Virus record (IMG/VR): IMGVR_UViG_3300033067_001807
Span: 17,498-81,497 of that record
Length of the DNA stretch: 64,000 bases
Reading direction: 5' to 3' (one strand)
DNA from: a virus
Taxonomy: Duplodnaviria > Caudoviricetes
The position numbers and the translations under genes were made by a program. The number at the start of each line of letters is the position of its first letter. Within the stretch, counting starts at the first letter, position 1. Shown piece by piece: positions 37,804-58,779 of this stretch. The notes under the pieces were generated by a model that searched no databases, was not told the origin of the DNA, and saw nothing but the letters and a program-made list of their open reading frames with translations.

Positions 37804-38061
37804 TTAGTCGCCTGCCATTATCACAAGCTCCTTTAACTTTTTAAGAGTTTCACACTTTTCATATTCCTCTAGTTCTACGAAATATTCTATAAGAAGATCT
37901 ATAAATCCACTTCGTTGTCCTATTCCATGTGGAATATCGATTGTGTTTTTACTATCTTGGTATACGATAAATCTATTAACCGTTTTTGTAAAATTTCGAG
38001 TTATTATATAGTAGCTGGACCTCATTAAAGAGTCTCTCTCCTCTTTAGTAATATCTTCCAT
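37804..38061 (-). CDS. Small protein with C-terminal UVR (UvrB/C)-like motif
   Basis: LIEYFVELEEYEKCETLKKL. Confidence 0.65.
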   Translation of the reverse strand: MEDITKEERDSLMRSSYYIITRNFTKTVNRFIVYQDSKNTIDIPHGIGQRSGFIDLLIEYFVELEEYEKCETLKKLKELVIMAGD

Positions 38062-38159
38062 CTGTTAATTTTATTTTTATTACGTCTAATTTGACTGATT
38101 AGATTATATATTTAGATGGACTTCCGAGAATATGTCATGTTGACAAAAAGGTTAGTATA

Positions 38160-38339
38160 TTATAAATCTCTCGATTGTTTATATCTTGCCTTTATAATCT
38201 TTTTTCTTTTTGATATTGATGGTTTTTCATAAGACGTATTGTCGCGTAATTCAGATAGCTGTTTAGTTGCAATTACCTTTTGCTTCAATTGTTTTAGTGC
38301 CCTTTCTATGTTTCCTTTTTCTACATTTATAATTAACAT
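38160..38339 (-). CDS. rpsU: Ribosomal protein bS21 (59 aa, absent from ORF track)
   Basis: Hand translation MLIINVEKGNIERALKQLKQKVIATKQLSELRDNTSYEKPSISKRKKIIKARYKQSRDL has the bS21 signature (IERALK..K.K...LR...YEKPS..R). Confidence 0.9.
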   Translation of the reverse strand: MLIINVEKGNIERALKQLKQKVIATKQLSELRDNTSYEKPSISKRKKIIKARYKQSRDL

Positions 38340-38584
38340 GATAGTTTATCAATTATTTTTTTAAGTTCTGTACATTTTTCATACTCTTCTCTATCTTTAA
38401 AAAAATCAAGTACGATTTGAACACCTTCTATTTTAACGGAGGCTGGGGCATCATGATTCAGTGCTCCCATACTTTTCTCAATAATTGATTTATAAATAAT
38501 TTCCATCATGTCTTCCTTGGAAGCATTCTGTAATTTTTTTATAAAGTCTGTTTCCTTGTTGTCGTATTCATCTAAATCATCCAT
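38333..38584 (-). CDS. Small protein with C-terminal UVR-like motif
   Basis: VLDFFKDREEYEKCTELKKII; ATG at 38584 overlaps the DnaJ stop (ATGGATGA). Confidence 0.65.
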   Translation of the reverse strand: MDDLDEYDNKETDFIKKLQNASKEDMMEIIYKSIIEKSMGALNHDAPASVKIEGVQIVLDFFKDREEYEKCTELKKIIDKLSC

Positions 38585-39371
38585 TAGAGTCTTTAATCTT
38601 TTTAAGTAATTCAATTTGATTTTCTGTTAAACTAATAGGCAACGTTCTAAGCTTTACCATAAGATTACCATATCCATTTGAGTTATATATTGGCATTCCT
38701 TTGCCAACTACTCTAAGTATTTTTGAATCATGTGAACCTTCGGGCACCTTAATTTTTACAGCATGCACCTTTGTTTTAACTTCAAACTCTCCCCCTAGTA
38801 ACATATCAATCCAACTAAGTGAAAGATCTACATAAATATCTGCACCATTTACTATAAGGTCGATGTCTTGTATAACATTTATAGTTAATATTATGTCGCC
38901 TGGTCTGGCACTTTTGTTGATTGGATGGGGTTGGCCTTTTTCTTTGATTTTAAGTTTCGTGCCATTCGGAATTCCCTTAGGTATATTAATATTAAATCCA
39001 CCAGTGCCGATATCGAGGTATCTTCTCGTTCCTTCATAACTTTCTTCTATTGTTATATTTATTGCCACTCGTACGTCAAATCCTCTAACTTCCTCATTAA
39101 ATGATTGGTCAAATGCTGTTGCAAAATCATATCTATTAAATATGTCTTTCCACGCATCGTCAATGTTAAATGATCGATTTCCACTAGTGTCGTGTTTCCT
39201 TCTACGTTCAGGGTCTCCTAAAACCTCATATGCTTCTACTACCTTTTTAAATTGGGTTTCGTCTCCTCCTGTTTTATCAGGGTGGTATTGTTTTGCAAGT
39301 TGCCTATATGATTTTTTAATTTCGTCCTGTGTCGCATTTCTAGAAACGTTTAAGGTTTCATAATAATTCAT
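38577..39371 (-). CDS. dnaJ: DnaJ/CbpA-like J-domain chaperone (no Zn finger)
   Basis: YYETLNV...QYHPDK J-domain; C-terminal domain INIPKG...PGDIIL...GYGNLMV. Confidence 0.9.
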   Translation of the reverse strand: MNYYETLNVSRNATQDEIKKSYRQLAKQYHPDKTGGDETQFKKVVEAYEVLGDPERRRKHDTSGNRSFNIDDAWKDIFNRYDFATAFDQSFNEEVRGFDVRVAINITIEESYEGTRRYLDIGTGGFNINIPKGIPNGTKLKIKEKGQPHPINKSARPGDIILTINVIQDIDLIVNGADIYVDLSLSWIDMLLGGEFEVKTKVHAVKIKVPEGSHDSKILRVVGKGMPIYNSNGYGNLMVKLRTLPISLTENQIELLKKIKDSNG

Positions 39372-39375
39372 TAGA

Positions 39376-39576
39376 CTATTTTGAAGAAACTGTTTTTACT
39401 CTGATTGTTTGCTTTCTTTCAGGAATAGGCCTAGTACGAACCTGTTTAACAGCGGCCTCTTTTTTCTCAGCGATTTGAGATCTTTTATGGATATTAATTT
39501 CTCTAATCTGTTGATTTTCCATACAAATTGCGATACGTTCTAAACTATCTGCAATTTTCTTTAAAGTTTCTTCCAT
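39376..39576 (-). CDS. Hypothetical protein
   Basis: 66-aa packed ORF (LKKIADSLERIA). Confidence 0.6.
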   Translation of the reverse strand: MEETLKKIADSLERIAICMENQQIREINIHKRSQIAEKKEAAVKQVRTRPIPERKQTIRVKTVSSK

Positions 39577-39593
39577 ATTATTATATTAATATA

Positions 39594-39878
39594 TTATATT
39601 TGTTCTAAAATATCTCTAATTCTAGCACATTTTTCATACTCTTCTACTTCAACAAATATTTCTAACATTTGATTAAGAGTTTTTGAAAGAGATTCAATAT
39701 CAAACCCATTGCGCTTCATTGTTTTAATATCTATTCCGTTTTCTACAATCATGTCATAGTTTTCATTCGCTAACTTCATTTTTAGCTCATACATCATTTC
39801 TTCCATTAAAGCTTCTCTTTTCATAGTTGTAATTTCGTCATCTTCCTCAAAAAGGTCATTAAAATTAAATTCGTCCAT
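39594..39878 (-). CDS. Small early protein with C-terminal UVR-like motif
   Basis: MLEIFVEVEEYEKCARIRDIL; start reassigned to the ATG at 39878 behind the early promoter. Confidence 0.7.
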   Translation of the reverse strand: MDEFNFNDLFEEDDEITTMKREALMEEMMYELKMKLANENYDMIVENGIDIKTMKRNGFDIESLSKTLNQMLEIFVEVEEYEKCARIRDILEQI

Positions 39879-39888
39879 GTTGTATATT

Positions 39889-39969
39889 TTATAATTATAG
39901 TGTAAATATAAATAAAAAATGCCAAACAAAAAAATATTTGGCAATTTATTTACAAAAAAGTTATTAATA
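39889..39969 (-). promoter_or_regulatory. Terminator plus early-promoter cassette
   Basis: TATTAATAAC box, GCCAAA/TTTGGC hairpin, then TATATTTACACTATAATT. Confidence 0.68.
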
Positions 39970-40791
39970 ATTTACTCTAATTGATTTATCTATAAGAATA
40001 TCAATCTCCCATTCAATGTTTTTACCCTGCAGTGCCGTATCGTAATGATTGGCAAGTCCTGCATTTTTATTTTGTTCACTATTTCTTTGTGAATATTGTG
40101 TATATTTAGATCTGACGTAATCAGCTCCCATATATTTGTAATGTAATAATTTTATTGGAAAATTATTAAAAGTTTCTAATACTTCAAATTGCATTTTCCA
40201 CCTGCCCCATGGATGTCCATTCCATTCACCAACTGGTCTAATTTCTTTGGGAACTGGGTGTAAGATTTCTCCTTCAAATTCAGAGTTTAATTCAATCTCA
40301 TGACAGCCTTCAATCCATTTCATCGATTTAATTTTATTTGGATTAATTAGAATAGGTTTTGAGTACCATGGATCTGGAACACCATGATTTATTTGTTCAT
40401 ATATCTGAATATCTTCTTCTGGAAAGTGATGTGAAACCATTTGAAAACCGGCTGGAAATATCACTGAAGAATCATTTGTTTGTAAGAATTCTATAATATT
40501 GGGATGGCATATAAATTCGTCACAATCACTTACTATAATATAATCTGCATTTCCTTTAGCATTTTCAATACATTGATGCTTTAAATCAAGGTGAACATAA
40601 TCATTGAAAGTTTCGCCTGTATTATATTGTATCACTTCAACCTTTGGATGTTTCTCACATATCCTTAGAGTGTTGTCTGTTGATTGATTATCTAAGACTA
40701 TTATTCTTTCACAAAACTGAGAATAGTGTCTTAGATAGTAAGGAAGCATCTTCTCCTCATTCCAAACAGTAACGTATGCCCATACTTTCAT
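39964..40791 (-). CDS. Glycosyltransferase family 2 (GT-A)
   Basis: YVTVWNEEKMLPYYLRHY, VLDNQSTDNT, IVSDCDEF. Confidence 0.85.
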   Translation of the reverse strand: MKVWAYVTVWNEEKMLPYYLRHYSQFCERIIVLDNQSTDNTLRICEKHPKVEVIQYNTGETFNDYVHLDLKHQCIENAKGNADYIIVSDCDEFICHPNIIEFLQTNDSSVIFPAGFQMVSHHFPEEDIQIYEQINHGVPDPWYSKPILINPNKIKSMKWIEGCHEIELNSEFEGEILHPVPKEIRPVGEWNGHPWGRWKMQFEVLETFNNFPIKLLHYKYMGADYVRSKYTQYSQRNSEQNKNAGLANHYDTALQGKNIEWEIDILIDKSIRVNY

Positions 40792-40795
40792 AATA

Positions 40796-41518
40796 CTAAA
40801 GTATTGGAAGATATGAGAGCCTTAACATAACATTCATTGTGGATTTTACGTCAGCCTCACAATATTCTTTTATTTTTTCAAGATTTCCATTCCAATATTC
40901 TTCAGTAGTTTCATTGCCTTTCATAATGGATTTCGGAGATGGAATGTTTAATGTATCACATATTAAATCTAATGAAGCGCTATTCCAACCCGCAAACTTC
41001 CAAACCTCATACGTATCTAATAGACAGTTTTCCCAAGGTTTTTTATTTTGTAAGTGAAATTGTGAAGGGGTTTGAATACCATATACAAGGGCTCTCTTAA
41101 TTAAAAACGGAAAATCAAAGTTTTTAATATTATGTCCTGCAAATTGAACATTTGGATTTTTTTTGAAAATTGCCTGAGCAGTTCCCATAAACTCCCTTAA
41201 GAATTCTGCCTCATCGTCTCCGTAAAATGATCTGATTTTTTCTGCAATTGGATTTCCATTTTCATCAAATTGAATTTGACCTATTGAGACTGTAATAATT
41301 TTTGCAAATTCAGGATGTAACGCTGCATTTTTTAAATATAGATCAGCATCACTTAATTCTGCCAAATCAACCTCGGTTCTTCTATAATTATCTGCTTTTT
41401 TTATCCAATGAATTACAGCACCAGGCCTTTGCTCGCAAAATTCACTATAGTATTTAAATTCTGAAACTGTCTCAATGTCAATAAATAACATTGATTTTAA
41501 ATTGGATACGCTATACAT
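40796..41518 (-). CDS. DnaQ/PolB-type 3'-5' exonuclease
   Basis: FIDIETV (ExoI), GHNIKNFDFPF (ExoII), YCEADV (ExoIII); start reassigned to the ATG overlapping the upstream stop. Confidence 0.88.
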   Translation of the reverse strand: MYSVSNLKSMLFIDIETVSEFKYYSEFCEQRPGAVIHWIKKADNYRRTEVDLAELSDADLYLKNAALHPEFAKIITVSIGQIQFDENGNPIAEKIRSFYGDDEAEFLREFMGTAQAIFKKNPNVQFAGHNIKNFDFPFLIKRALVYGIQTPSQFHLQNKKPWENCLLDTYEVWKFAGWNSASLDLICDTLNIPSPKSIMKGNETTEEYWNGNLEKIKEYCEADVKSTMNVMLRLSYLPIL

Positions 41519-41747
41519 CTTTTTCGTTATTAGAAATGTTATAAATTGATATTGGATATTTACTAGATTTTCTGCCTTCTCTCTCGTTAATAAACCAGAA
41601 ATATGGATGTCCATGTATTTTTGCTAATGAATTACATTTTTCAATAATAGGACCATACATAAGAGAACCTGCAAATCTAAAAAAGTATTTTTCACCGATC
41701 TTTGGATTTTTAACTTTAATCTCTTGGATTTTTTTATCTTTTGCCAT
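41511..41747 (-). CDS. Hypothetical protein
   Basis: 78-aa packed ORF. Confidence 0.6.
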   Translation of the reverse strand: MAKDKKIQEIKVKNPKIGEKYFFRFAGSLMYGPIIEKCNSLAKIHGHPYFWFINEREGRKSSKYPISIYNISNNEKDV

Positions 41748-41777
41748 ATAGTATTATATACAAAGAATAAAAATTGT

Positions 41778-41999
41778 TTAAATTTGATTTGAAATGCACG
41801 ATGTGTCAGTACATTGTCTAAGTTTTAAGTATCTTTCAAATGTAATTGATAATTCAATCCAACCCCCTGTAATTGATTCAGGTATATTTGAATTATCGGT
41901 AAAGTAGTGTGGCGCGTTTTCAATACGGTCTAAAAGGAAGTCAACCATGCGATCAACTTCCATATTATGAACCCATATTTTTACAAACGTATTATTCAT
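41778..41999 (-). CDS. Hypothetical protein
   Basis: ATG at 41999 overlaps the GT stop (ATGAATAA). Confidence 0.55.
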   Translation of the reverse strand: MNNTFVKIWVHNMEVDRMVDFLLDRIENAPHYFTDNSNIPESITGGWIELSITFERYLKLRQCTDTSCISNQI

Positions 42000-43842
42000 T
42001 TTCGTTATATACAATGTTTGCTGCCATTTCTTCTTCTCCAAATCTTGGCATAACGTCTAATGGATTATTTGGATTTTCCTCATACGCCCAATCCTTTAAT
42101 CCAAGTTCTTCAAATCTTTCTTTGATTTTTTCATTATAATATCCTCCAATAGTTCTTACTCTTCTTTGGATATCAGCTCTTGCTAAATCATGTGTGTTTT
42201 GTCCAGTTGCATTATTATATAAAAATTGAATATAACCAAGTTTCGGAATTTTACATGTTACTGTTTTTAGGAAAGTTCTTACAATTAATTCATAATCATC
42301 TGCAATGGCAAGATTTCTATTGTGTCCTCCAATTTCAAAATAAGTAGAACGTCTCCATGCTCTTACGTGATTTGGAACACCCACAATATGTCTAATTGTT
42401 TTTGGATTAAGATTATGTTGAGTTGCAACTTTCATCATTTGCCCATTATACATCTCATCTCTGTATTTTCCATATGCAAATGCAAATCCATCAGGATATG
42501 TTTGACACTCCCAATTTTCATTAACCTCTAATGTGTCATTGAAAAAGAAGCCAGCTTCAGGATGTTTCTTTGCTGCCTTGTATAAATCTTCAGTACACCA
42601 TGGAACCAATAAATCATCATGGTCTAATTCTGCAAGAATAAATCCCTTTGCCATACAATTTGCTCTCCATTTTACTTCACCTATGTTTCCTCCACTCTTC
42701 TCTCTAAAGTCATATACTTTAACACGAGGATCTCTTGCAGCAATATCTTCTGCTATCTTTAATGTTTTACCTCCATCTGTAGAGTCATTCACAAGCACCC
42801 ATTCCCAATTAGAATATGTTTGCTGTTTTAATGATTCGTATGTATTATATAATTTCTCCTTTGTATTATATATTGGAGTGGTATATGAAATTAAATTTGA
42901 ATCTTCAATGGAATCATTATCAAGCATAGTATACATCGAAGAAACATATGCACGGTCCCCTACTTCCGCATCCAATATATCCAATGGAATGTTTATCCAT
43001 TTTCTACGAAATTGTAGAGACATATTCGCCATATTTGGAAATTCTTGCCAAGACTCTCCTCTTGTTATTATGATGTCTGGTTTAAATATAGATAAAATGG
43101 ATTCTATGTTTTCATCACTCTTTAAATATTTTACATTTAGGTTATCTGCCTCATACCATAAATATTTGATTGATTTTAAATCGGGTTCGTCTAATCCAAT
43201 ATATAAAACTTTAGGTACATTTGCTGATGCCTTTTTTTCTAAATAATTATAATGAGAATATATTGTAGGTGTAAACGTAAATGATTCTGGCATTTTTTTA
43301 AATACATCACTTATAAGAATTCCATCAGCACAATAATCCGGTTTGAATTTATATCCATGTTTGTTATAGACATCAACATGTGAGATATATTGGGCAAGAT
43401 CTATGCCACCTTTTTTCATATTATGTGCAACCGCTAATCTGTAATCTAATCCAGTAAAGTCCTTTCCGGCAACATTCTGTGAAACAACATGAACAAGTTT
43501 TTCAGGAAATATATTTGACATTTCCAGTACATATTCATAAAATCCATCGTGTACTATGTTATCATCATCAACAAAATAAACCCAACCCTCTTTAAATTTT
43601 GAAATTATATTAGAACATTGTGGATATAACATTCCTACTTTATCTCCCTTTTCAAAATAATATTGTGTAGAATCGTCCTTTAAATCAGATAGTAATTCAG
43701 CATCAATATCCTTCAATGACGATGTATCGAAGACAACGTGCCATTTAATATCGATTCCGATTGGAATACTGTTAAATACAGATTCTTTAACTATTTTTAA
43801 ATTTTGAAGTCTTGTACTTCTTGTAATTATATTGATTATCAT
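41992..43842 (-). CDS. Two-domain glycosyltransferase (GT-A + GT2)
   Basis: N-domain WVYFVDDDN; C-domain YTTPIYN, WEWVLVNDSTD, LAELDHDD, IADDYEL. Confidence 0.88.
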   Translation of the reverse strand: MIINIITRSTRLQNLKIVKESVFNSIPIGIDIKWHVVFDTSSLKDIDAELLSDLKDDSTQYYFEKGDKVGMLYPQCSNIISKFKEGWVYFVDDDNIVHDGFYEYVLEMSNIFPEKLVHVVSQNVAGKDFTGLDYRLAVAHNMKKGGIDLAQYISHVDVYNKHGYKFKPDYCADGILISDVFKKMPESFTFTPTIYSHYNYLEKKASANVPKVLYIGLDEPDLKSIKYLWYEADNLNVKYLKSDENIESILSIFKPDIIITRGESWQEFPNMANMSLQFRRKWINIPLDILDAEVGDRAYVSSMYTMLDNDSIEDSNLISYTTPIYNTKEKLYNTYESLKQQTYSNWEWVLVNDSTDGGKTLKIAEDIAARDPRVKVYDFREKSGGNIGEVKWRANCMAKGFILAELDHDDLLVPWCTEDLYKAAKKHPEAGFFFNDTLEVNENWECQTYPDGFAFAYGKYRDEMYNGQMMKVATQHNLNPKTIRHIVGVPNHVRAWRRSTYFEIGGHNRNLAIADDYELIVRTFLKTVTCKIPKLGYIQFLYNNATGQNTHDLARADIQRRVRTIGGYYNEKIKERFEELGLKDWAYEENPNNPLDVMPRFGEEEMAANIVYNENE

Positions 43843-43859
43843 ATTATATTATTAAGTTA

Positions 43860-44792
43860 TTATACGTCAAAGAAAAACATATGGAAAAATCTAGCGTTAT
43901 CAATTGCATCTCCAAAATATTGAGTTGCAGCATGGATATTTTTAGCATCAAATAAAACTAATCTATTATAGACATTTCCAACCTCATCTATTTTTTCAAA
44001 ATGAGTTCCATCATAAAAATTCATTTCAGCATTTTTACCTTGAAAGGCTCTTACGTAGTTTATTGTACTTCTTTTTTCATCATCAAATTTATAATCTCCA
44101 GTAACTTTACTTCTATAAAATGCGGTACCCGTTGATGGAGGTGCATTAGGCGTTAAAAATACCATACCAGCGTATGTTTGGTTATCGACATGGTATACTA
44201 TTGGTTGATCTGCTGTACAAAATTGAAATATTCCATTTGCGTATGAATCATGGTTCCAATTATAAATAGGTTTTCCGATAATAGACTCGAGTTTTTCTTT
44301 CATGCCAATTATTGAAAATCGACTAGTTGCTCTTTCTCCTTTATGATAATTAGATGGAGAGAATTTAATTTCCTTAATTGCCCATTCTCTAATAAAGTCA
44401 GGGTCATTATAAAAATTATCTACAACAATGATACCTTTGTCTTGATTTGCAAAACCAGTATAATATGCTAGCCACTTTGCAAGTGATTCGATTACAATTT
44501 CCTTTTCAACAAAATTACCCATGGATATAACAATAGGTTCGAATAGTTCACTACCATCGATTGTTATACTAAATCCTATTTGAGTACTTTCAATGTTAGG
44601 ATAAAATTGCTTTACATCTTTCCTTTCTGAAAATTTGTTAAACCTTTTTTTACCTACCTTTATCATAGATATTTCTCCTTTTTCTGAAAAAATCCAACCA
44701 TTAAAGGTATAGCTATTTTGATTTTGCTCTAATGAATCAACATACATTCGTATGTTATCATGTTTTGTAAAATGTGATATGATGTCTGCCAT
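43860..44792 (-). CDS. 2OG-Fe(II) oxygenase-like protein (DUF6445-like) with N-terminal extra domain
   Basis: IVVDNFYNDPD; HxD (YHVD); GTAFY; NRLVLFD; distal His (NIHAA); 2OG-binding Arg (ARFFH). Confidence 0.75.
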   Translation of the reverse strand: MADIISHFTKHDNIRMYVDSLEQNQNSYTFNGWIFSEKGEISMIKVGKKRFNKFSERKDVKQFYPNIESTQIGFSITIDGSELFEPIVISMGNFVEKEIVIESLAKWLAYYTGFANQDKGIIVVDNFYNDPDFIREWAIKEIKFSPSNYHKGERATSRFSIIGMKEKLESIIGKPIYNWNHDSYANGIFQFCTADQPIVYHVDNQTYAGMVFLTPNAPPSTGTAFYRSKVTGDYKFDDEKRSTINYVRAFQGKNAEMNFYDGTHFEKIDEVGNVYNRLVLFDAKNIHAATQYFGDAIDNARFFHMFFFDV

Positions 44793-44841
44793 AATTATTA
44801 TATAGATGAATCTAGATTAGTTTATTATTATATTATATGAT

Positions 44842-44849
44842 TATATATC
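44842..44849 (-). promoter_or_regulatory. Putative late promoter
   Basis: GATATATA just downstream of the terminator and upstream of the oxygenase. Confidence 0.5.
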
Positions 44850-44852
44850 AAT

Positions 44853-44879
44853 AAAAAAGGGGACCGATTAGGTCCCCTT
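44853..44879 (-). terminator. Intrinsic terminator after the collagen gene
   Basis: GGGGACC-TAATC-GGTCCCC followed by T6. Confidence 0.85.
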
Positions 44880-44899
44880 AGTTTTAATGTGAAATTAGA

Positions 44900-46888
44900 T
44901 TATTTTTTAAGTAAATCAATTTCTGCCTTTAATTCATTAATTGCTTGAATTAATAATGGTACAATTTTTTCATATTGTACAGTGATATAGTTTTCACCAG
45001 TTTTAGAATTTCCATTCTCATCCATATCAAATGGTGCTGGTTTAATAACTTCAGGTAATACTTCTTGAAGTTCCTGTGCGATAACTCCAACCTGTTGTCT
45101 ATAATCATTATATCCATACTCTTCAGCTAATTTGTTTTGAGTATAAGATACACCTCTTATTTTTCCAACCTTTTCAAGAGCGTTTTCAATAGGCTTAATA
45201 TTATCCTTAAGTCTTCTATCTGAATAGAATGCGATAATATCGTTTGTTGCTACTATTTGTCCTCCAGTTCCAGTTGGTCCAACACCAACCCCTAAAGAGT
45301 TAAAATGCCAGTTGGATCCCCAACCACCACCACCGGCAGGACCGGTTGCTCCGGTTGCTCCAGTTGCTCCAGTAGGACCAGTCGGACCTTGTGGACCAGT
45401 TGCACCCGTACCTCCAGTTGCTCCAGTAAATCCTTGGAAACCTCTAGCACCCTGTGCTCCAGTTGTTCCAATACCTCCAGTAGGACCAGTAGGACCAGTA
45501 GGACCCTGAACACCTTGTGCTCCAGTACCTCCAGTTGCTCCAGTAGGACCAGTAAATCCTTGTGCTCCAGTAGGACCAGTTGCTCCAGTAGGACCAGTAA
45601 ATCCTTGTGCTCCAGTTGCTCCTTGTGCACCATTTGTTCCATTAGTTCCAGCAGCACCTTGGAATCCTTGGTCTCCTTTTGCCCCAGTTGCTCCAACAGC
45701 ACCTTGTGTACCAGTTGCACCAGCAACTCCTTGGAATCCCTGTGCACCATTAGTTCCATTAGTTCCAGCAACACCCTGTGCTCCAGTTGCTCCTTGTGCA
45801 CCATTTGTTCCAGCAGCACCTTGGAATCCTTGGTCTCCTTTTGCTCCAACGGCACCCTGTGCTCCAGTTGCTCCTTGTGCACCATTAGTTCCAGCAGCAC
45901 CTTGGAATCCTTGGTCTCCTTTTGCTCCAACATCACCTTGTGCTCCAGTAATACCTTGAATACCTTGATCTCCTTTAGCACCTTGTGCTCCAGTAAATCC
46001 CTGGTCTCCTTTAGGACCAACCACATTTTGGTTAGATACTGGCGTTTGACCATTATCTAATGATATTGTTAATAAACCATTGTTTAATGATACATTGTTT
46101 ACAGAAACTCCATTAAATCCTTGGTCTCCTTTAGCACCTTGTGCTCCAGTTTCTCCAGTAAATCCTTGATCTCCTTTGATACCCTGAATACCTTGTTCTC
46201 CTTGGTCTCCCTTGAATCCTTGATCTCCTTTAAGACCCTGTTCTCCTTGAATACCCTGAATACCTTGAATACCTTGTTCTCCTTGGTCTCCTTTGGCACC
46301 TTGTGCTCCAGTTTCTCCAGTAAATCCTTGATCTCCTTTGATACCTTGAATACCTTGTTCTCCTTGGTCTCCTTTAGCACCTTGTGCTCCAGTTTCTCCA
46401 GTAAATCCTTGGTCTCCTTTAAGACCCTGTTCTCCTTGAATACCCTGAATACCTTGTTCTCCTTGGTCTCCTTTGGCACCTTGTGCTCCAGTTTCTCCAG
46501 TAAATCCTTGATCTCCTTTGATACCTTGAATACCTTGTTCTCCTTGGTCTCCTTTAGCACCTTGTGCTCCAGTAAATCCTTGGTCTCCTTTAAGACCCTG
46601 TTCTCCTTGAATACCTTGAATACCTTGTTCTCCTTGGTCTCCTTTGATACCTTGAATACCTTGTTCTCCTTGGTCTCCTTTAGCTCCTTGGTCACCAACT
46701 AAACCTTGAATACCTTGTATTCCTTGTTCTCCTTGATCGCCTTTATCTCCCTTAGAACCTTGGTCTCCTTTAGCGCCTTGGTCTCCAACTAAACCTTGAA
46801 TACCTTGTATTCCTTGTTCTCCTTGAAGTCCTTGGTCACCTTTAAATCCCTGTGGTCCCGCGGTAGAAATGTACGGTGTTATTGCCAT
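44900..46888 (-). CDS. Collagen-like fibre protein with C-terminal intramolecular chaperone (peptidase S74-like)
   Basis: Two long Gly-X-Y domains; [11 protein letters not shown]...[14 protein letters not shown]...[18 protein letters not shown]. Confidence 0.92.
45325..46860. repeat. Imperfect 9-bp-periodic tandem repeats encoding Gly-X-Y
   Basis: Recurrent blocks such as ccttgttctccttggtctcctt and ccttgtgctccagt. Confidence 0.9.
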
Positions 46889-46917
46889 TGTTTTTCTATT
46901 TTTTTTTATTTAATTTA

Positions 46918-47676
46918 TTAGTCTAATGAAGATTTTTCATATACTAGATCTATTATATCACTTTCGCCTATTGCGTATCCAGTAACATTTGAGTTCCAGT
47001 ATAAAGTGTCTCCCGCTGATAATGTTGCAATCGATTTTGCGGTTGCACCTCCGTCGTTTGAAAAGTAAACTTCTCCATCTCTATTACCGTAAGATTCAGT
47101 TACTGCAATACCATTAATATACACCTGTACTGTTGAATCAGAGAATGGTGTGTAATCTAACGTAATTCCAGTTGATGCATAGTTTCCATCAGTAAATAAT
47201 GAAGGAGATGATTGAGTGTGCTCCTGTCCTTGGGCAGTTGGTACTGCTCCTAAACTTGGTCTCCATGGAAGTACTTGTGCTGTTTCAGATGTAATAGCCT
47301 GAATAATAGGGTTGCTGTAGGTAAAATTAGGATTTGACGTTGAAACGTGCTCTACCATAGTACCATTACCGCTCTCATCGACAACATAGAATTTTCCAGG
47401 AGTTAGACCCCATTCAGAAACTTCGATATTACCGATTTGAACTGCAACAAACGTGTCGGTTGTAACACTTTCAACAACAAGTCTACCTAGTTTATCAGCT
47501 GCGGATGCATCTGCTAAAATCCAAGATCCATTAAGAAATGCAATAACATTTCCTGCTGCAAAACCATGACCTACTTGTGAGTAAGTTGACTTCAAAGACC
47601 CAGATTCTAACCTAGCATTGATTGCGTTTAGGGTAGTTTGTAAACCCTCAATCTGCTTGATTTTAATTTGTGACAT
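46918..47676 (-). CDS. Virion fibre-associated protein
   Basis: MSQIKIKQI start; C-terminal VQVYING...GYAIGESDIIDLVY domain shared with 50442 and 52390. Confidence 0.6.
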   Translation of the reverse strand: MSQIKIKQIEGLQTTLNAINARLESGSLKSTYSQVGHGFAAGNVIAFLNGSWILADASAADKLGRLVVESVTTDTFVAVQIGNIEVSEWGLTPGKFYVVDESGNGTMVEHVSTSNPNFTYSNPIIQAITSETAQVLPWRPSLGAVPTAQGQEHTQSSPSLFTDGNYASTGITLDYTPFSDSTVQVYINGIAVTESYGNRDGEVYFSNDGGATAKSIATLSAGDTLYWNSNVTGYAIGESDIIDLVYEKSSLD

Positions 47677-47738
47677 AGATTTTTTGTTTTTTTATTTTTT
47701 TCTGCCCAAAGGATTATTTAGTTAACCCCGTTCATATC

Positions 47739-47747
47739 TATATATTC
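47739..47747 (-). promoter_or_regulatory. Putative late promoter of the 46918-collagen operon
   Basis: GAATATATA. Confidence 0.45.
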
Positions 47748-47812
47748 ATGAATGTTATTATTATGTTTACATTTTAATGGGAATATCTTAATATAATTTG
47801 AATAAATATGAT

Positions 47813-50357: not shown

Positions 50358-50380
50358 AAAATAGGTGATTTGTTTTGATT

Positions 50381-50388
50381 TATATATT
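50381..50388 (-). promoter_or_regulatory. Putative late promoter
   Basis: AATATATA between the terminator and the DUF2827 gene. Confidence 0.45.
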
Positions 50389-50392
50389 TCAT

Positions 50393-50420
50393 AAAAAAAG
50401 GGACTCCGAAGAGTCCCTTT
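50393..50420 (-). terminator. Intrinsic terminator with C(UUCG)G tetraloop
   Basis: GGGACTC-TTCG-GAGTCCC followed by T7. Confidence 0.9.
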
Positions 50421-50441
50421 AGTTTAATCAGAAAATACTAA

Positions 50442-52226
50442 TTATCCTTGGTAAGTGATAACTACAGTATCGTCTCCGTCGATTACATAACCTGGATCCG
50501 CTAATATAATAGCTTCAATTGGTGCACTAGCTTCTGCAACTTCAACTTTGTGTCCATTTACGAAAACAGTTACTAAGTTTTTGTTCCAATCTTGTACAGC
50601 GTTTGCAACTGAATATACTAAACCATTTCCTACGAAAGATTCAACATACATTTGAACATCTTCCATGATGTAACCTTCTAATGAAGTTAATCTATCACCA
50701 TGTGCAAGTTCTAAATCAGATATAGTTGATTCTAATGAATCAACTTCTCCATTAACATAAGTTCCAACATTAAGGATCTCAGTAGAGAATGCAGCTTCAA
50801 CTCTTACGAAGTCTGAGTTAGTAGCAGAGATTTCAGCAGTTAATGCTAATTCTAATGAATCAACTGAATCAACTAAGTCTCCAGATACTTCTCCTAATCT
50901 GTTATCGATAGAAGTAATATCTGCATTAGTAGCTGAAATTTCAGCAGCTAAAGCAACTTCTAATGAATCAACAGAAGCATTAGTAGCTAATGCGTAAGAA
51001 GCAAATGCGTCATCATTTGTAGTATCAACTGAGTTGATTAAAGAAACGATTTCAGCGAATGAATCTTTATCAGCATCTGAAGCCAATAAGATTGCATCGA
51101 TTCTACCTTTTTCAGTAGAGATTCTTGCGTCGATTGAAGTAACTTCACCATCAATAAATCCTTCTAATGAAACAACTTCAGCATCGATTAATCCTTCTAA
51201 TGAAGTAACTTTACCTTCAACAGAAACGAAATCAGCGTTAGTAGCAGAGATTTCAGCGGCTAAAGCAACTTCTAATGAATCGATAGAATCATTTTGTGCA
51301 TTGTTTAATGTCTCAATGTTAGTAGCTCTTGTATCAACTGATGTAAAATCAGCATTAGTAGCAACTATTTCAGCAGATAAAGCCAATTCTAATGAATCAA
51401 CTGTTTCAACTAAATCGCCTGAAACTGCGCCTAATCTAGCGTCGATAGAAGCAACTTCATCAACGACTTCAGTAGATAATGCTGCTAAATCATTAGTTAA
51501 TGTTAATTCAGCTGCAGTAGCTCTAGAAGTTTCAGCAGATAATTTACCTTCAACTGATACGAAATCTGCGTTAGTAGCAGAGATTTCAGCAGCTAAAGCA
51601 ACTTCTAATGAATCAACAGAAGCATTGATACCTTCAACGTCAGCGTTAGTAGCTGCAATTTCAGCAGATAAATTAGCTTCAACTCTTACGAAATCAGAGT
51701 TAGTTGCAGAGATTTCAGCGTTTAAGTCAAGAATAACCTGTGCAACTGCATTATCGTTTGTTAAATCAACTGCGTTAATTACAGAAACGATTTCAGCAAA
51801 TGAATCTTTGTCAGCATCAGATGCTAATAAGATTGCATCGATTCTAGCTTTTTCAGTAGAAACGTTTGCATCAATTCTAGTAACATCAGAGTTAGTAGCA
51901 TTGATTTCAGCTGTTAAAGCATTTTCTAATGAATCGATTGACTCATTGATTACACCTTCAGCTTCTTGAGCTCTTAACATCTCATCTGAAGTATACAATC
52001 TAGCGTCGTAGATTTCAGCAGATAAAGAAACTTCTAATGAATCAATAGATGCAATAACTTCAGCATGATCCATTGCCTGGATGTCTTCAACTGCAGCAAA
52101 CTTCTCGTCAATGTAAAGCTTAGTGTCAGCTGCATTGGCGATTTTAGTTTTGTCAGATGTGCTCAATGTTCCGAAGTTTACTGTAGATAAGAAATCAGAA
52201 ATTTGTTTTGAACGAATTTGTGCCAT
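50442..52226 (-). CDS. Acidic repetitive coiled-coil virion fibre protein
   Basis: Repeated VDSLE(V/L)ALxAEIxATN(A/S)D; duplicated RIDAILLASDADKDSFAEIVS; shared C-terminal domain. Confidence 0.7.
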   Translation of the reverse strand: MAQIRSKQISDFLSTVNFGTLSTSDKTKIANAADTKLYIDEKFAAVEDIQAMDHAEVIASIDSLEVSLSAEIYDARLYTSDEMLRAQEAEGVINESIDSLENALTAEINATNSDVTRIDANVSTEKARIDAILLASDADKDSFAEIVSVINAVDLTNDNAVAQVILDLNAEISATNSDFVRVEANLSAEIAATNADVEGINASVDSLEVALAAEISATNADFVSVEGKLSAETSRATAAELTLTNDLAALSTEVVDEVASIDARLGAVSGDLVETVDSLELALSAEIVATNADFTSVDTRATNIETLNNAQNDSIDSLEVALAAEISATNADFVSVEGKVTSLEGLIDAEVVSLEGFIDGEVTSIDARISTEKGRIDAILLASDADKDSFAEIVSLINSVDTTNDDAFASYALATNASVDSLEVALAAEISATNADITSIDNRLGEVSGDLVDSVDSLELALTAEISATNSDFVRVEAAFSTEILNVGTYVNGEVDSLESTISDLELAHGDRLTSLEGYIMEDVQMYVESFVGNGLVYSVANAVQDWNKNLVTVFVNGHKVEVAEASAPIEAIILADPGYVIDGDDTVVITYQG

Positions 52227-52251
52227 ATTATAAATATAGGTTTTTTTGGCC

Positions 52252-52344
52252 CGTAAACATTAGTGTTTACGAAGTTGCAAACATTATTGTTTGTAACTGA
52301 ATTATATATCGGGATTGTTGTGTGAAAATTGATATAATTTCACA
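52252..52344 (-). promoter_or_regulatory. Late promoter with twin leader hairpins and an upstream inverted repeat
   Basis: GATATATA at 52303-52310; hairpins at 52274-52297 and 52252-52271; TGTGAAA...TTTCACA at 52321-52344. Confidence 0.6.
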
Positions 52345-52389
52345 TATTATATGATTATTTTTGAAAAAATTAAAAAAATAAATTTTTAA

Positions 52390-53625
52390 CTATCTTAAAT
52401 CTTCTATACGTGATTCATATATAAAGTTAATAACATCGCCTGGAGATAATTCAAATCCTGCAATATTTCCATTCCATATTAATTGGTCGCCTGATCTAAT
52501 ATCAGCAATTTGAACTGCACTTAATCCATTGTTTCCTGAAAAGTAAGCAGATGAATCTGTTGTATTATTTCCAATATCTACGCTAATTCCATTTACCTCT
52601 ACCATAACATAAGAATCATAATATGGAGAATATGTTATGTAAACTCCAGTTGGGGATTTAGCGCCATCGGTATTTACATTAACAACTTTGTTTTTGTCAA
52701 CATATGTTAACATACCGTCCGGTTTTACATCGTTTGATGTAATTCCATGAGTATCTATTGAATAAGTAACGCCGTCTCCGATTTGCCAAAGTGATTTGGA
52801 AACACCTGGCCCATAAGACATCGACTCTAATCTAACATTGATTTTAATACCATCCGTAGGGTCTTGGTTTCCGTTTCCAGTTGTAATGTCTATTCTTTCC
52901 CATCCTGTAATTTCGTAAATAGTAAAGAAGTTAACAATAGAAGTTGAGTATAGTGTAATTATTCCCTTGATTCCATCGCCATCCATTCTATTAACTAAGA
53001 AATTTTCAAGTTGAGTAACTCTAACCATGTTTTTGTCAAGATTTCTAAAAATCATTTCAGTAATGTTAGATGGAACTTGTGAATTTACTGACATTTTACC
53101 TGAAGTACTTGGAAAACTTAAATCAGTGTATTCTATATTAAATAATGGCTGTCCTAGTGGAATTGCAGGATTAATAGGTGGTTCTGGATTTTCTCCACCT
53201 CCACCTCCACCTGTGTCGCTAGCAATAACTTGTCCAATTTTAAGAATTGGCATTATGTATGTCTTTGCATTTGGATAATAGTCAGAAAATATAAGAGTAA
53301 TTTGAATATTTAAATCTCCAGAAGCTAGAGCACTTGATTGCATTTCATTTATTTCAAAGCTAATAACGCCTGGCTGATTTAATGATACATCTTTAAAATT
53401 CAAAATGTCAGAAACACCAGGTACTACTGGAGAATTATACATTAAAACTTTTTTAAGCTGTTTATCTAAAATTGCAACCGATATTACCGAAACATTTCTT
53501 GCGTTTAATTGATTTCCGAAAAAATCTCTGTATAATGATATGTCATACACATGAGATTCTCCTTGTGTAATATTTATGGTATTATCTATACTTGCGATAA
53601 TGTCTTCCTGTACAACGTATGCCAT
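52390..53625 (-). CDS. Virion structural protein
   Basis: C-terminal VMVEVNG...GFELSPGDVINFIY domain shared with 46918; late motif at 53649-53657. Confidence 0.6.
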   Translation of the reverse strand: MAYVVQEDIIASIDNTINITQGESHVYDISLYRDFFGNQLNARNVSVISVAILDKQLKKVLMYNSPVVPGVSDILNFKDVSLNQPGVISFEINEMQSSALASGDLNIQITLIFSDYYPNAKTYIMPILKIGQVIASDTGGGGGGENPEPPINPAIPLGQPLFNIEYTDLSFPSTSGKMSVNSQVPSNITEMIFRNLDKNMVRVTQLENFLVNRMDGDGIKGIITLYSTSIVNFFTIYEITGWERIDITTGNGNQDPTDGIKINVRLESMSYGPGVSKSLWQIGDGVTYSIDTHGITSNDVKPDGMLTYVDKNKVVNVNTDGAKSPTGVYITYSPYYDSYVMVEVNGISVDIGNNTTDSSAYFSGNNGLSAVQIADIRSGDQLIWNGNIAGFELSPGDVINFIYESRIEDLR

Positions 53626-54358: not shown

Positions 54359-54419
54359 GTTATATTTATCTAAATTAACACTAAAAATTTGATAGAAATC
54401 AAATTATATTAATATAATC

Positions 54420-54940: not shown

Positions 54941-54949
54941 ATTATGTTA

Positions 54950-55636
54950 TTATCTTTTTGAATTAATAACCTCATCGATAATTCCATATTTTTTTGCCTC
55001 TTCTGCATTTAACCAAAAATCGCGAGTTGCATCCTTCATTACCTGTTCTGGTTTTTTACCACAGTATTCTCCTAATAGTGTGAACAATTCTTTGTTCACT
55101 TTTTGCCATTCTTGCCAATCTATTTCAGCATCTTGAATATTTCCGCTAAAACCTCCAGAAGATTGGTGTAACATAGTGGTAGAGTGTCTTAGTGAACTTC
55201 TCTTACCTTTGGTTCCCGCTCCTAATAACACAGATCCCATTGATGCCGCCATCCCAGTATTGACCGTGCGTATATCAGATTTAATGTATTCCATAACATC
55301 TACCATCGAAAGTCCTGACTTAACACTTCCGCCTGGAGAATCAATATGCATTGTAATATCTCTATTGTCATTTGAATCAAGGAACATTAATTGAGCTTGA
55401 ACAACTGTTGACATATTATCGTCAACTGGACCAGCAACCCATAATAATCTATCCATCATCAATCTGGAAAAAATATCCATTTGAGTAGCTCTTAGTTCTC
55501 TCTCCTCTAAAATGTATGGAGTCATTGAGCTCTCTATCTGTTTTTGATAATAATGCATATTTAATGAGCTAATATTGTGATCGCTCATTGCATATTTTTG
55601 AAATTCTTTTCCGTAATTCATATTATAGTTGTTCAA
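54950..55636 (-). CDS. clpP: ClpP protease proteolytic subunit
   Basis: MDIFSRLMMDR, IDSPGGSV, AASMGSVLL (Ser), MLHQ (His), RDFW (Asp). Confidence 0.96.
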   Translation of the reverse strand: MNNYNMNYGKEFQKYAMSDHNISSLNMHYYQKQIESSMTPYILEERELRATQMDIFSRLMMDRLLWVAGPVDDNMSTVVQAQLMFLDSNDNRDITMHIDSPGGSVKSGLSMVDVMEYIKSDIRTVNTGMAASMGSVLLGAGTKGKRSSLRHSTTMLHQSSGGFSGNIQDAEIDWQEWQKVNKELFTLLGEYCGKKPEQVMKDATRDFWLNAEEAKKYGIIDEVINSKR

Positions 55637-55913
55637 TTATATTTTTAATTTTTGTACACATTTTGTAATTCTCGTTTTCAATATAGAATTCAAGACTTTT
55701 TTGCAATGATTGCTTATATGCATTGTGAGGTAAGTCTGCTGTCATTATTGTTCCATCCGGCGCTATTAATGTGCATAACTTCGTTTCATTTGATTCTCCA
55801 CTTAAGTTTTCTTGAATTAATTCGATAATTCTTTCGTGAAATTTCTCAGTATGATATACGTTTCCAGTTCCTTCTATATAAAATTCTGGTATTTCGTTCA
55901 TGTATTTTATCAT
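55623..55913 (-). CDS. Small protein with C-terminal UVR-like motif
   Basis: SLEFYIENENYKMCTKIKNII; overlaps the clpP start. Confidence 0.62.
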   Translation of the reverse strand: MIKYMNEIPEFYIEGTGNVYHTEKFHERIIELIQENLSGESNETKLCTLIAPDGTIMTADLPHNAYKQSLQKSLEFYIENENYKMCTKIKNIIEQL

Positions 55914-55916
55914 CTT

Positions 55917-56765
55917 CTATTTTATATTAAGATATTCACATAATATGTTACTATAATATTCTCTATCCTCATTGTCATAAATACCTTTATTAATATTATT
56001 TATCATACTAATACCATAATCCGTTATTATCATATTACCTTTTTCGATATTGAAAATCGGCTGAGATAATTGCATAGTGGCTATTTTTTTGTCAGAACTT
56101 TCGTGAACTATTTTTTCAGCAAGTTCATAATGTCTTTCATAAAAATGAATATTATCTGCAAAGTGATAGTATGTTCCTAATGACAATTCCGGATATGTTG
56201 ATTTTAACCAAAGATAAACATGTTGGTGCACAAATGCAAAGAAAGGTGCATCAAATGTAAGTCCATAAAAAATATCGTTGGATCTCATTTGAACTTTCAT
56301 ATCTAATTTATTTTCTCGAATAGAGAAGTTTAAATACATTGTGCATACAAAATCTTTGTTACCCTTAAATTGATATTTCGGTTGATTTAAAAATGCAATT
56401 GCTTGTCTTGTATTTTTATCATTTTTAAGAGATGTAACAACCCAATCCAATTGTTCTCCAAAAAGAAGAGAACCATAATTTGAATTTATTTCATTTGTAT
56501 TTGGATTTGTGATGTTTTTCCAAAATCCTGAAAATTGATTAATGTAATCTACATTAGTATCTTTATTTAAGTACCATGCAAGTTCACCTGCAAAATATTT
56601 CCAATTAAATTCTCTATTTTCAAAATTTGCAAAAGGTTGAGTAGGATCTACCGCATATCCAGCGTACATTAATTCTGTAACTTCAAGGTCTCTTGGTTTA
56701 GAGACCTTTCCGTTTATCTTTATATCTGATATAATGTTTTTGAATACCGTTGAAAAGTTATTCAT
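55917..56765 (-). CDS. Thymidylate synthase-family enzyme (possibly dCMP/dUMP hydroxymethylase-like)
   Basis: NSNYG, TRQA, KDFVCT, MRSNDIFYGLTFD, NIHFYERH. Confidence 0.85.
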   Translation of the reverse strand: MNNFSTVFKNIISDIKINGKVSKPRDLEVTELMYAGYAVDPTQPFANFENREFNWKYFAGELAWYLNKDTNVDYINQFSGFWKNITNPNTNEINSNYGSLLFGEQLDWVVTSLKNDKNTRQAIAFLNQPKYQFKGNKDFVCTMYLNFSIRENKLDMKVQMRSNDIFYGLTFDAPFFAFVHQHVYLWLKSTYPELSLGTYYHFADNIHFYERHYELAEKIVHESSDKKIATMQLSQPIFNIEKGNMIITDYGISMINNINKGIYDNEDREYYSNILCEYLNIK

Positions 56766-56808
56766 TTATTATTGTATTAAGTTAATATATTATTCTATTA
56801 TTATACTA

Positions 56809-58779
56809 TTATTTAATGGAAAGTTTCTCATCTCCTTTTTTGTGAGAGATAGTATAAACTTTGCTTCCTTTAACTATTGTTTTTAAAATAATAGCGTCTG
56901 CCAATAAATCTTCAACGTAAGTTTGAACTGCTCGTTTTAGTGGTCTTGCACCATATTGCGCATCATATCCTTTTTCTGCAAGAAAAATCATTGCCTGTTT
57001 TGTTAATTTTATGGTATATTCTTGTTCTGCCATTCTACTAACAACCTTATTGATTTCTATTTCTGCGATTTCTAATACATGTTCCTGTTTTAAACCATCA
57101 AACAAAACTATTTCATCAAGTCTATTTAAAAACTCAGGTGCAAATTTATTTTTAAGTTCTTTTCTAATAACTGTTTCCATTTCTATTTTGTGAGAAGTAA
57201 CTGATGTTGAGCTACTAAACCCGATTCCTGCACCAAATTCGGCAACTCTTTTTGCACCAACATTACTTGTCATAATAATGATAGTATTTGTAAAATCAAC
57301 AGTTCTTCCTAAACTATCAGTTAATCTTCCTTCATCTAAAACCTGTAATAGTGTGTTAAACACGTCAGGGTGGGCTTTTTCAACCTCGTCAAATAATACA
57401 ACCGAATATGGTTTTCTACGAACCTGTTCTGTTAATTGTCCACCTTCCTCATGTCCAACATAACCAGGCGGAGAACCTATAAGTCGACTTACATTAAATT
57501 TTTCTTGATATTCTGACATGTCAATTCGGATTAATGCATCTTCGCTTCCAAAGTAATAGTCAGTTAATGCTTTAACAGTTTCTGTTTTACCCACACCAGT
57601 TGGTCCAATAAACATAAAGGAACCTATGGGTTTTTTAGATGAACTTACTCCAGTTCTACTTCTTTTAATAACTCTACAAAGCCCTTCAACCGCGTTATCT
57701 TGTCCAATAATCATAGACTTAAGTTCGTTTTCCATTTGAACAATAATTCTATTCTCATCGTCTGTCATTCTTGTGATTGGAATTCCAGTTGTTTGTGATA
57801 TTGTTTCTGCAATATCCTCGTAGGTTACCATTTTTTTATTTAATCTAAGCGTCTCCTCCCATTCCTTTGTGGTTTTTATTATTTCTTCTTTTTTGGAAAG
57901 TTCTAAATCTCTAAACTTTCCTGCCTTCTCGTAGTCCTGTTGGTCAACTGCAACTAATTTTTGAGTTTTGAATTTTTCTGCCTCTTTTTCAAGTTCCTTG
58001 ATATTTTCAGGCATTTTTACTTCTTTTAAATGTACCTTGGCACCTGCCTCATCCATAACGTCAATTGCTTTGTCCGGTAATTCACGTTGTGTAATATACC
58101 TATCAGATAATTTAACGCATGCTGCAATTGCTTCATCACTATACGATACTGCATGGTAATCCTCGTAGTTTGATTTAATTCTTGTAAGAATTTCTATTGC
58201 ATCTTCAATTTTAGGTGGATCGATAAATATTTCTTGAAATCTACGAGTAAGTGCTCCGTCCTTTTCAATATTTTCTCTATATTCATCAAGTGTAGTTGCT
58301 CCAATACATTGTACTTGCCCTCTTGCCAACGCGGGTTTTAAAATATTACTTGCATCTAAAGAACCACTGACACCACCTGCACCGACTATAGTATGAATCT
58401 CATCAATAAAAACAATTATATCTTTATTCTCTTTTAATTCATCCACTATATTTTTCATACGCTCTTCAAATTCACCACGATATTTAGTACCTGCGACTAT
58501 ATTTGAAATGTTTAATGAAATGATTTTCTTATTAAGAAGAGTCATTGCCACCTGTTTATTAACAATCCTCTGTGCAATTGCTTCAACTAATGCGGTTTTT
58601 CCAACCCCAGGGTCTCCTAATATAATTGGATTGTTTTTCTTTCTACGTGAAAGAATTTGACAAATTCGATATACTTCTTTTTCTCTTCCAATAATTGGGT
58701 CAAGTTTTCCTTCAATCGCCATTTGAGTTAAGTCTTCTCCATATTGGTCGATAAACGGTGTATTAGTTTTCTTTGACAT
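56809..58779 (-). CDS. clpC: ClpC-type AAA+ unfoldase lacking the N-terminal domain
   Basis: Two AAA modules (GDPGVGKT/IDEIH and GPTGVGKT/FDEVEK), KYRG and GYVG pore loops, UVR M-domain QQDYEKAGKFRD, IGF loop. Confidence 0.9.
   Translation of the reverse strand: MSKKTNTPFIDQYGEDLTQMAIEGKLDPIIGREKEVYRICQILSRRKKNNPIILGDPGVGKTALVEAIAQRIVNKQVAMTLLNKKIISLNISNIVAGTKYRGEFEERMKNIVDELKENKDIIVFIDEIHTIVGAGGVSGSLDASNILKPALARGQVQCIGATTLDEYRENIEKDGALTRRFQEIFIDPPKIEDAIEILTRIKSNYEDYHAVSYSDEAIAACVKLSDRYITQRELPDKAIDVMDEAGAKVHLKEVKMPENIKELEKEAEKFKTQKLVAVDQQDYEKAGKFRDLELSKKEEIIKTTKEWEETLRLNKKMVTYEDIAETISQTTGIPITRMTDDENRIIVQMENELKSMIIGQDNAVEGLCRVIKRSRTGVSSSKKPIGSFMFIGPTGVGKTETVKALTDYYFGSEDALIRIDMSEYQEKFNVSRLIGSPPGYVGHEEGGQLTEQVRRKPYSVVLFDEVEKAHPDVFNTLLQVLDEGRLTDSLGRTVDFTNTIIIMTSNVGAKRVAEFGAGIGFSSSTSVTSHKIEMETVIRKELKNKFAPEFLNRLDEIVLFDGLKQEHVLEIAEIEINKVVSRMAEQEYTIKLTKQAMIFLAEKGYDAQYGARPLKRAVQTYVEDLLADAIILKTIVKGSKVYTISHKKGDEKLSIK

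Follow-up and report, generated by a model that had tools for sequence, protein, structure and literature searches.

Four small paralogues of an essentially virus-only family, each ending in a divergent UVR-like hairpin, within the chaperone/protease island of a large marine phage

Within a 64,000-nucleotide stretch of a large uncultured marine phage (the window; positions 17,498 to 81,497 of IMG/VR record IMGVR_UViG_3300033067_001807), four small genes, here called u1 to u4, are found among genes for a ClpC-type unfoldase, a ClpP peptidase and a DnaJ co-chaperone. With high confidence, we assign all four as paralogues of one very large, undescribed and essentially virus-only family of proteins of about 90 residues, which end in a common helix-turn-helix hairpin marked by the block EEYEKC. 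We read u1 to u4 as small protein-docking modules, which in the jumbo-phage clade of the window most likely act as accessory factors of the chaperone/protease machinery. More tentatively, at least u4 may act on the phage ClpC/ClpP, a possibility that we take seriously without counting on it.

The C-terminal motif common to u1 to u4 is [FY]xxxE(E/N)Y(E/K)(K/M)Cxx[IL], and the original prediction that four small open reading frames end in it held up well: a six-frame regular-expression scan of the whole 81.5-kb contig returned four matches only, all of them C-terminal and corresponding to u1 to u4, whereas 200 shuffles of the DNA gave 0.005 on average and never more than 1. Furthermore, the full-length profiles of the four proteins all match each other (P ≤ 5e-8). 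A family profile built from 45 viral relatives and searched against 1.84 billion representatives recovered 1,542 clusters at the 50% identity level (E ≤ 1e-3), the members being nearly all between 54 and 173 residues long. EEYEKC itself is present in 115 of the 149 listed matches and a one-residue variant in 26 more, with a median of 15 residues from the motif to the protein end. Across a family alignment of 150 sequences the Cys never varies, and conservation reaches at least 90% for each of E, Y, E and K. Among the four paralogues, u1 is the best conserved (55-94% identity in relatives), and u4 orthologs possess a second invariant cysteine, C47 in a predicted beta strand, besides the hairpin cysteine C86.

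The family is confined to viruses almost throughout. Its nearest Atlas clusters are 96-100% viral, and 185,579 species genomes yielded only six family loci, all on contigs of metagenome-assembled genomes (MAGs), one of which is a 120-kb contig resembling a phage genome. Only six longer forms were encountered, none fused to a Pfam domain; PHROGs holds no family for u1 to u4 or for typical members; when the phage collection was searched with the region by megablast, no cultured-phage relatives came up, and tblastn of a typical family member gave one uncultured record. The present work thus defines a very large virus-only family with an invariant EEYEKC block and no Pfam or PHROG entry. As a separate observation, a Bacteroidetes MAG encodes a 111-residue protein with LLQEEYEKCADIKELL between two identical GvpA-like gas-vesicle genes (L059:7977-8312), which may be a rare cellular member.

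Judged from its sequence, the EEYEKC motif is a divergent UVR-like hairpin in which an invariant cysteine replaces the first alanine. Like the UVR motif (PF02151; present at the UvrB C-terminus, in UvrC, in the ClpC M-domain, in McsA and in plant CLPF and UVR1-4), it forms a helix-turn-helix hairpin of about 35 residues, whose second helix opens with acidic-aromatic-E-x-small-small followed by [LI][RK][DN], and the family tyrosine aligns with the aromatic at the tip of the ClpC M-domain. For comparison, 15 genuine UVR motifs (from UvrB, UvrC, ClpC and small UVR-ending proteins) were collected from five MAGs; the 150-sequence family alignment matched them in register by hhalign with a score of 25.7 (P = 1.7e-4), whereas the best of 60 column shuffles reached 10.5 and the reversed alignment 15.6. 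PF02151 was also the only Pfam family recurring among members (11 of 45 at E < 1, best E = 1.8e-4), and UVR is annotated on 57% of the members of one Atlas neighbour cluster. In these respects the earlier claim that the motif is UVR-like was borne out. A direct hidden Markov model match, which had been suggested as a check, stands only in part: the profile comparison and the recurrent PF02151 matches speak for it, with all scores below the Pfam gathering cut-off of 21.5 bits, namely 13.1-13.7 bits (E 0.056-0.083) for u3 and 19.1 bits for one relative, and with no Pfam UVR match for u1, u2 and u4. One u3 ortholog is named McsA by the Joint Genome Institute (JGI), a name which probably reflects only the UVR-like motif. 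DEAD-box helicases, the best matches in a PDB profile search, were discarded as chance (E = 0.25).

AlphaFold models place this hairpin within a compact protein. The u3 model (predicted local distance difference test, pLDDT, 90.4; predicted template modelling score, pTM, 0.72) is all-alpha with helices H15-47, H51-56, H61-77 and H81-93, the last being opened by Y81 of the conserved block, while the u4 model (pLDDT 85.5, pTM 0.74) has two beta-hairpins around H22-38, followed by H63-79 and H83-95. In both models the C-terminal hairpin packs in cis against the N-terminal helix to form a three-helix core, which sets the family apart from the UVR motif, as does its restriction to viruses. With the hairpin region removed, similarity is detected only between the N-termini of u1 and u3 (P = 1.2e-4), and five of the six pairs give P > 0.05. 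Given the shared three-helix core, u1 to u4 are therefore not free hairpins on unrelated heads, and the "unrelated N-termini" of the original prediction hold only in part: the copies have a core of helix and hairpin in common and differ in what decorates it, both in their N-terminal extensions and in the inserts that separate the first helix from the hairpin. Foldseek returned nothing at E ≤ 0.001 for either model. In wide VIA-align searches, where all Z values fall under the level that is meaningful for helical folds, the best match of u3 was an SPX chain (Z 6.5, root-mean-square deviation 8.9, 88 aligned residues) and that of u4 had Z 7.0 (4.1 over 68 aligned residues), with BAG-domain chains (Z 5.3-6.4) as a weak lead only for u3.

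The unfoldase and peptidase encoded in the same region are largely as predicted. ClpC has its Walker and pore motifs in place (GDPGVGKT at 55, KYRG at 99, VFIDEIH at 123, GPTGVGKT at 392, GYVG at 439 and LFDEVEKA at 462), a ClpP-docking loop GIGF at 518-521 and an M-domain UVR motif QDYEKAGKFRD at 281-291 that aligns with the S. aureus M-domain and in which Y283, D282, E284, A286, R290 and D291 are invariant in the clade. Its match to S. aureus ClpC spans residues 155-798 of the latter (E = 5e-226), with phage residue 2 aligned to residue 155; the N-domain is therefore absent. Consistently, Clp_N (PF02861) had no match in the protein or elsewhere in the contig, nor in five relatives whose contigs reach 200 kb, and no ClpS gene was found in the contig or in these relatives. 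The IGF loop, the UVR-type M-domain and the missing N-domain that had been read from the sequence were thus all confirmed. ClpC proteins of this kind, 655-658 residues long, make up at least 120 clusters at at least 79% identity on contigs of up to 242 kb, and hence the naturally N-domain-less ClpC is standard equipment of an abundant aquatic jumbo-phage group. The intact triad claimed for ClpP was likewise recovered as Ser132, His157 and Asp206 (numbered from the TTG at 55636), in the contexts expected from alignment to solved ClpP; the protein scores 201.5 bits against PF00574, matches ClpP in the PDB at E = 7e-48, and carries about 30 extra N-terminal residues before the alignment to solved ClpP begins (at residue 32-38).

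Gene order ties one of the four paralogues to this pair. The order ClpC-TS-u4-ClpP, where TS is a thymidylate-synthase-like gene, is kept in all eight relatives compared, so that the predicted position of u4 beside clpP proved to be a fixed one, between TS and clpP. Identity to the window proteins is 69-95% for ClpC and ClpP across relatives, and for u4 only 28-44%, except in the closest relative (89%). The overlap of u4 with clpP that had been proposed did not survive: the TAA of u4 lies at 55625-55623 and the ortholog-supported ATG of clpP at 55621, a distance of 1 nucleotide, so the two genes abut, and an overlap arises only with the upstream TTG start of clpP. The other three copies belong to a second segment of the same island, which reads ClpC(N-less)-TS-u4-ClpP ... 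(Hsp20)-u3-g66-DnaJ-u2-bS21-u1-PhoH; the run exonuclease-(glycosyltransferase)-u3-g66-DnaJ-u2-bS21-u1-PhoH-RNase HII is shared by more than 20 IMG/VR contigs, and Hsp20 adjoins u3 in six relatives. A 200-kb relative (G010, 74% complete) contains exactly four copies, at 98.4-105.8 kb and all within 7.5 kb of the Clp/DnaJ island; CheckV-type completeness figures correspond to a genome of about 270-300 kb. Wherever a contig of the clade reaches far enough, the linkage of the u genes with clp is complete.

How u4 might act is suggested by work on an engineered S. aureus ClpC. Deletion of the N-domain fails to activate proteolysis by this ClpC; instead, rings of the N-domain-less protein pair head to head by way of M-domain contacts for which F436 is required, and the resulting dimers associate with ClpP into long rods that show no degradation, whereas addition of F436A restores activity (Jenne et al. 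2025, PMC12583610). F436 is the aromatic of the M-domain UVR motif and aligns with Y283 of the phage ClpC, and the conserved tyrosine of the EEYEKC family holds the same motif position. In plants, moreover, the UVR-domain proteins CLPF, EXE1/2 and UVR2-4 co-purify with trapped CLPC1 (PMC8889267). A natural N-domain-less ClpC that keeps the aromatic tip would plausibly need a cap, and u4, a tip-like hairpin encoded directly before clpP, would be the logical candidate. Because the family tyrosine aligns with the tip aromatic, u4 could cap the M-domain tip of the phage ClpC; such a cap would stop the head-to-head pairing of rings and would thereby license ClpCP. ClpC binding, ClpC activation and any substrate delivery by the variable parts are inferred, whereas family membership, hairpin anatomy, UVR likeness, gene order and the absence of the N-domain are shown.

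Complex modelling, which had been proposed alongside the original prediction, adds little to this. ESMFold2 gave u4 with ClpC residues 1-345 a score of 0.32, the best of three controls being 0.00; the runs agreed in at least 100% of the contacts, and partner pLDDT was at least 78. Of 80 solved complexes 58 attain the pass mark of this procedure, as do 2 of 110 mismatched pairs, but scores of 0.60 or less comprised only 7 of the 80 solved complexes and both of the mismatches that passed; a pass at such scores is in most cases an error, except for a pairing that was likely beforehand, and since the prediction used custom alignments, these counts hold only roughly. Thus, the result is weakly supportive, raises the odds of a u4-ClpC complex only slightly, and supplies no interface.

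Table 1. Features of the window discussed in the text (window coordinates).
Feature	Position	Strand	Remarks
PhoH-like ATPase	37079-37789	minus	directly downstream of u1
u1	37804-38061	minus	EEYEKC-family paralogue, 85 residues; phoH directly downstream
bS21 ribosomal protein gene	38160-38339	minus	PF01165, E = 2.5e-13; between u2 and u1
u2	38333-38584	minus	EEYEKC-family paralogue; listed open reading frame 38333-38614, probable ATG 38584, overlapping the dnaJ stop
DnaJ co-chaperone	38577-39371	minus	J-domain plus DnaJ_C: PF00226, E = 1e-23; PF01556, E = 8e-29
g66	39376-39576	minus	conserved 66-residue gene, no Pfam match; between u3 and dnaJ; syntenic in 21 loci
u3	39594-39878	minus	EEYEKC-family paralogue, 94 residues; listed open reading frame extends to 39944
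ClpP peptidase	54950-55621	minus	PF00574, 201.5 bits; probable ATG 55621, upstream TTG 55636
u4	55623-55913	minus	EEYEKC-family paralogue, 96 residues, motif ENENYKMC
TS (thymidylate-synthase-like gene)	55917-56765	minus	PF00303, E = 5e-22; between clpC and u4
ClpC-type double-ring AAA+ unfoldase	56809-58779	minus	656 residues; Pfam AAA_2, AAA_lid_9, AAA, ClpB_D2-small

The region from 37.0 to 59.0 kb is transcribed almost wholly from the minus strand (Table 1). Alignment of 14 orthologs sets the start of u3 at MDEFNF (39878). Upstream of it, where the original prediction had noted an early promoter, 39880-39963 (minus strand) holds a hairpin with a 9-bp stem and a T-run, then TATATTTAC and, immediately ahead of the ATG, a TATAAT-like box; by its letters this stretch resembles a terminator-plus-promoter-like intergenic element; sigma-70-like sites in the region are not in excess over shuffles (26 versus 22 ± 4.4). 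Between clpP and u3 the island is split by about 13.6 kb of glycosyltransferase, collagen-like repeat and fibre genes (39964-53625). Since clpP and u3 stand only about 4.5 kb apart in the relatives L011 and L014, this block looks like an insertion into the island. It also encodes, on the plus strand at 47798-48397, a second and divergent J-domain protein, conserved among several relatives, with HPD present (PF00226 at E = 1e-4, below the cut-off).

Phages outside the clade usually have a single copy, and its neighbours vary. For instance, a gene that we read from its sequence as SNase (staphylococcal nuclease)-like stands directly beside the member in two different phages (L029:10119-10481 and L047:1516-1860), and PhoH directly follows a member in L051 and L052, as it does in the window. 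A wider Clp link, prompted by AAA_2 matches of about 400 residues in four non-clade contigs, was rejected since these were read as MoxR/CobS-like, an assignment made by inspection for L053 and from size and score for the other three; at L053:5421-8950, a 665-residue protein that appears vWA-like is followed by a 405-residue MoxR/CobS-like AAA+ gene about 1 kb upstream of the member, and it is the latter that gave the false ClpC-like match. Separately, a 130-kb non-clade contig with a member has a ClpP-like match (E = 1e-37) with one TAA interruption (G032:C1:30797-31303). The motif does occur independently of clp genes in distant carriers, which is one part of what the original prediction had named as its refutation; within the clade, as described, its linkage to clp is complete.

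Several observations weigh against a role of the family in the phage protease. First, u1 to u3 adjoin DnaJ, bS21 and PhoH rather than clp, leaving u4 as the only copy tied to clp, and tandem duplication by itself would already place paralogues close together. Second, all three complete genomes examined outside the clade (67, 89 and 120 kb) contain a member but no ClpP, no ClpC-type AAA_2 protein and no DnaJ. Third, the Pfam gathering cut-off was reached by no score, no chain with a UVR motif came up when PDB sequences were searched with a profile, and fold searches aligned the three-helix core to generic helical bundles only (Z ≤ 7). Moreover, the cis packing of the hairpin, common to the two models, may keep its hydrophobic face from pairing with another UVR hairpin, and the predicted u4-ClpC complex is weak and came without a reported interface. 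Finally, the phage ClpC may need no partner at all; its behaviour is deduced by analogy with an engineered S. aureus construct to which it is about 52% identical.

Alternatively, the proteins may have an unrelated function, as small three-helix-bundle regulators or assembly factors with another partner, such as PhoH, a transcription component or an enzyme acting on nucleic acids. The likeness to UVR would then reflect no more than a common hairpin shape or distant ancestry, and the neighbourhood would be a product of tandem duplication within a region of accessory genes. The diverse surroundings of non-clade members (SNase-like genes, PhoH, small basic proteins), the absence of informative fusions and the generic bundles returned by fold searches all fit this explanation, and the six invariant contiguous residues, including a cysteine foreign to the canonical UVR motif, favour a specific site over the pairing of coiled coils. 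It does not account well for the in-register match to true UVR motifs, which beats every shuffle, nor for the linkage of u4 to clpP, which persists while u4 itself diverges so widely; furthermore, the four copies do not stand in tandem but interleave with chaperone and protease genes. On balance we give such an unrelated function a weight comparable to that of an action of u4 on the phage ClpC/ClpP.

UVR hairpins mediate the contact between UvrB and UvrC. They also mediate contacts of the ClpC M-domain (PMC8889267, PMC12583610), which raises the prospect that family members are host-directed UVR mimics, docking on the M-domain of host ClpC, on UvrB/UvrC or on McsA-like proteins in order to hijack or block them whether or not the phage encodes a Clp of its own; the copies of the jumbo phages would act likewise, their proximity to clp and dnaJ being incidental. 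As complete genomes lacking clp and dnaJ carry a member, a phage-encoded partner cannot be general, and the host would offer one: full-length ClpC proteins bearing UVR motifs are encoded in Bacteroidota MAGs, the motif of the family is itself UVR-like, and a precedent exists in phage SPO1, whose Gp53 acts on host ClpC (PMC6873191). Yet the cis packing of the hairpin in u3 and u4 is as awkward for this explanation as for a phage-encoded target, and host mimicry explains neither the fixed place of u4 between TS and clpP nor the retention of four copies by the clade, each of them within the chaperone island. We give it a comparable, slightly lower weight.

The full model of the original prediction, in which each hairpin docks on the ClpC M-domain and each variable N-terminus delivers a different target, is improbable: the evidence that points to a role with the chaperone/protease machinery applies to it too, and the N-terminal halves do differ (all-alpha in u3, beta/alpha in u4, with five of six pairs dissimilar in sequence), but gene order links u4 alone with clp, the N-termini of u1 and u3 resemble each other, members are found in genomes that lack Clp, and the N-terminal helix lies in one compact core with the hairpin, so that the two parts are not independent modules.

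We thus retain the reading of u1 to u4 as accessory factors of the chaperone/protease machinery, with u4 as the candidate closest to ClpC/ClpP. A bolder generalization, for which we would give only a slim chance, holds that EEYEKC hairpins are mimics of the ClpC M-domain tip throughout. One or more copies would cap N-domain-less ClpC in jumbo phages, so that inactive head-to-head ring pairs do not form and a private phage ClpCP is switched on, the variable parts choosing substrates or linking to DnaJ and Hsp20; in phages without clp, the hairpin would hijack or derepress host ClpC. If such mimicry were true, the family would represent new and very widespread viral regulators of AAA+ proteases acting via the middle domain instead of the N-domain. 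Should the hairpin proteins act on the middle domain of ClpC, they would be the first natural partners shown to control ClpC without its N-domain, and would show how a virus runs a private protease. The published work on F436 makes a role in M-domain capping testable.

Compared with known systems, the phage pair resembles bacterial ClpC-ClpP in possessing a double-ring ClpC with M-domain and ClpP-docking loop as well as a ClpP partner. It differs from ClpC-ClpP operating with MecA or McsA/McsB, as no homologue of MecA, McsA/McsB or ClpS was found in the phage, and u1 to u4 themselves had no MecA, ClpS or McsA/McsB Pfam match at E ≤ 1. A functional parallel is Gp53 of SPO1, an adaptor-like protein for host ClpC that binds mainly the N-domain (PMC6873191): it is likewise a small phage protein, and u4 is proposed, in the same manner, to act on ClpC and redirect proteolysis. 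Gp53, in contrast, has no sequence relation to the family, uses the domain that is absent from the phage ClpC, and is directed at a host enzyme and not at a phage-encoded one.

Jumbo phages have been reported to carry ClpP, ClpS, ClpA/ClpX, DnaJ and Hsp20 (Iyer et al. 2021, PMC7824862), and the island described here is similar as it provides a large phage with its own peptidase, unfoldase and co-chaperones; in our reading, that survey names ClpS as the phage adaptor and contains no mention of an N-domain-less ClpC or of an EEYEKC/UVR-like family. A further likeness is to the engineered N-domain-less S. aureus ClpC, to which the phage protein constitutes the natural counterpart: its start corresponds to residue 155, compared with 147-159 in the construct, and it keeps the tip aromatic needed for M-domain pairing, but here the N-domain is naturally missing, and this across the whole clade.

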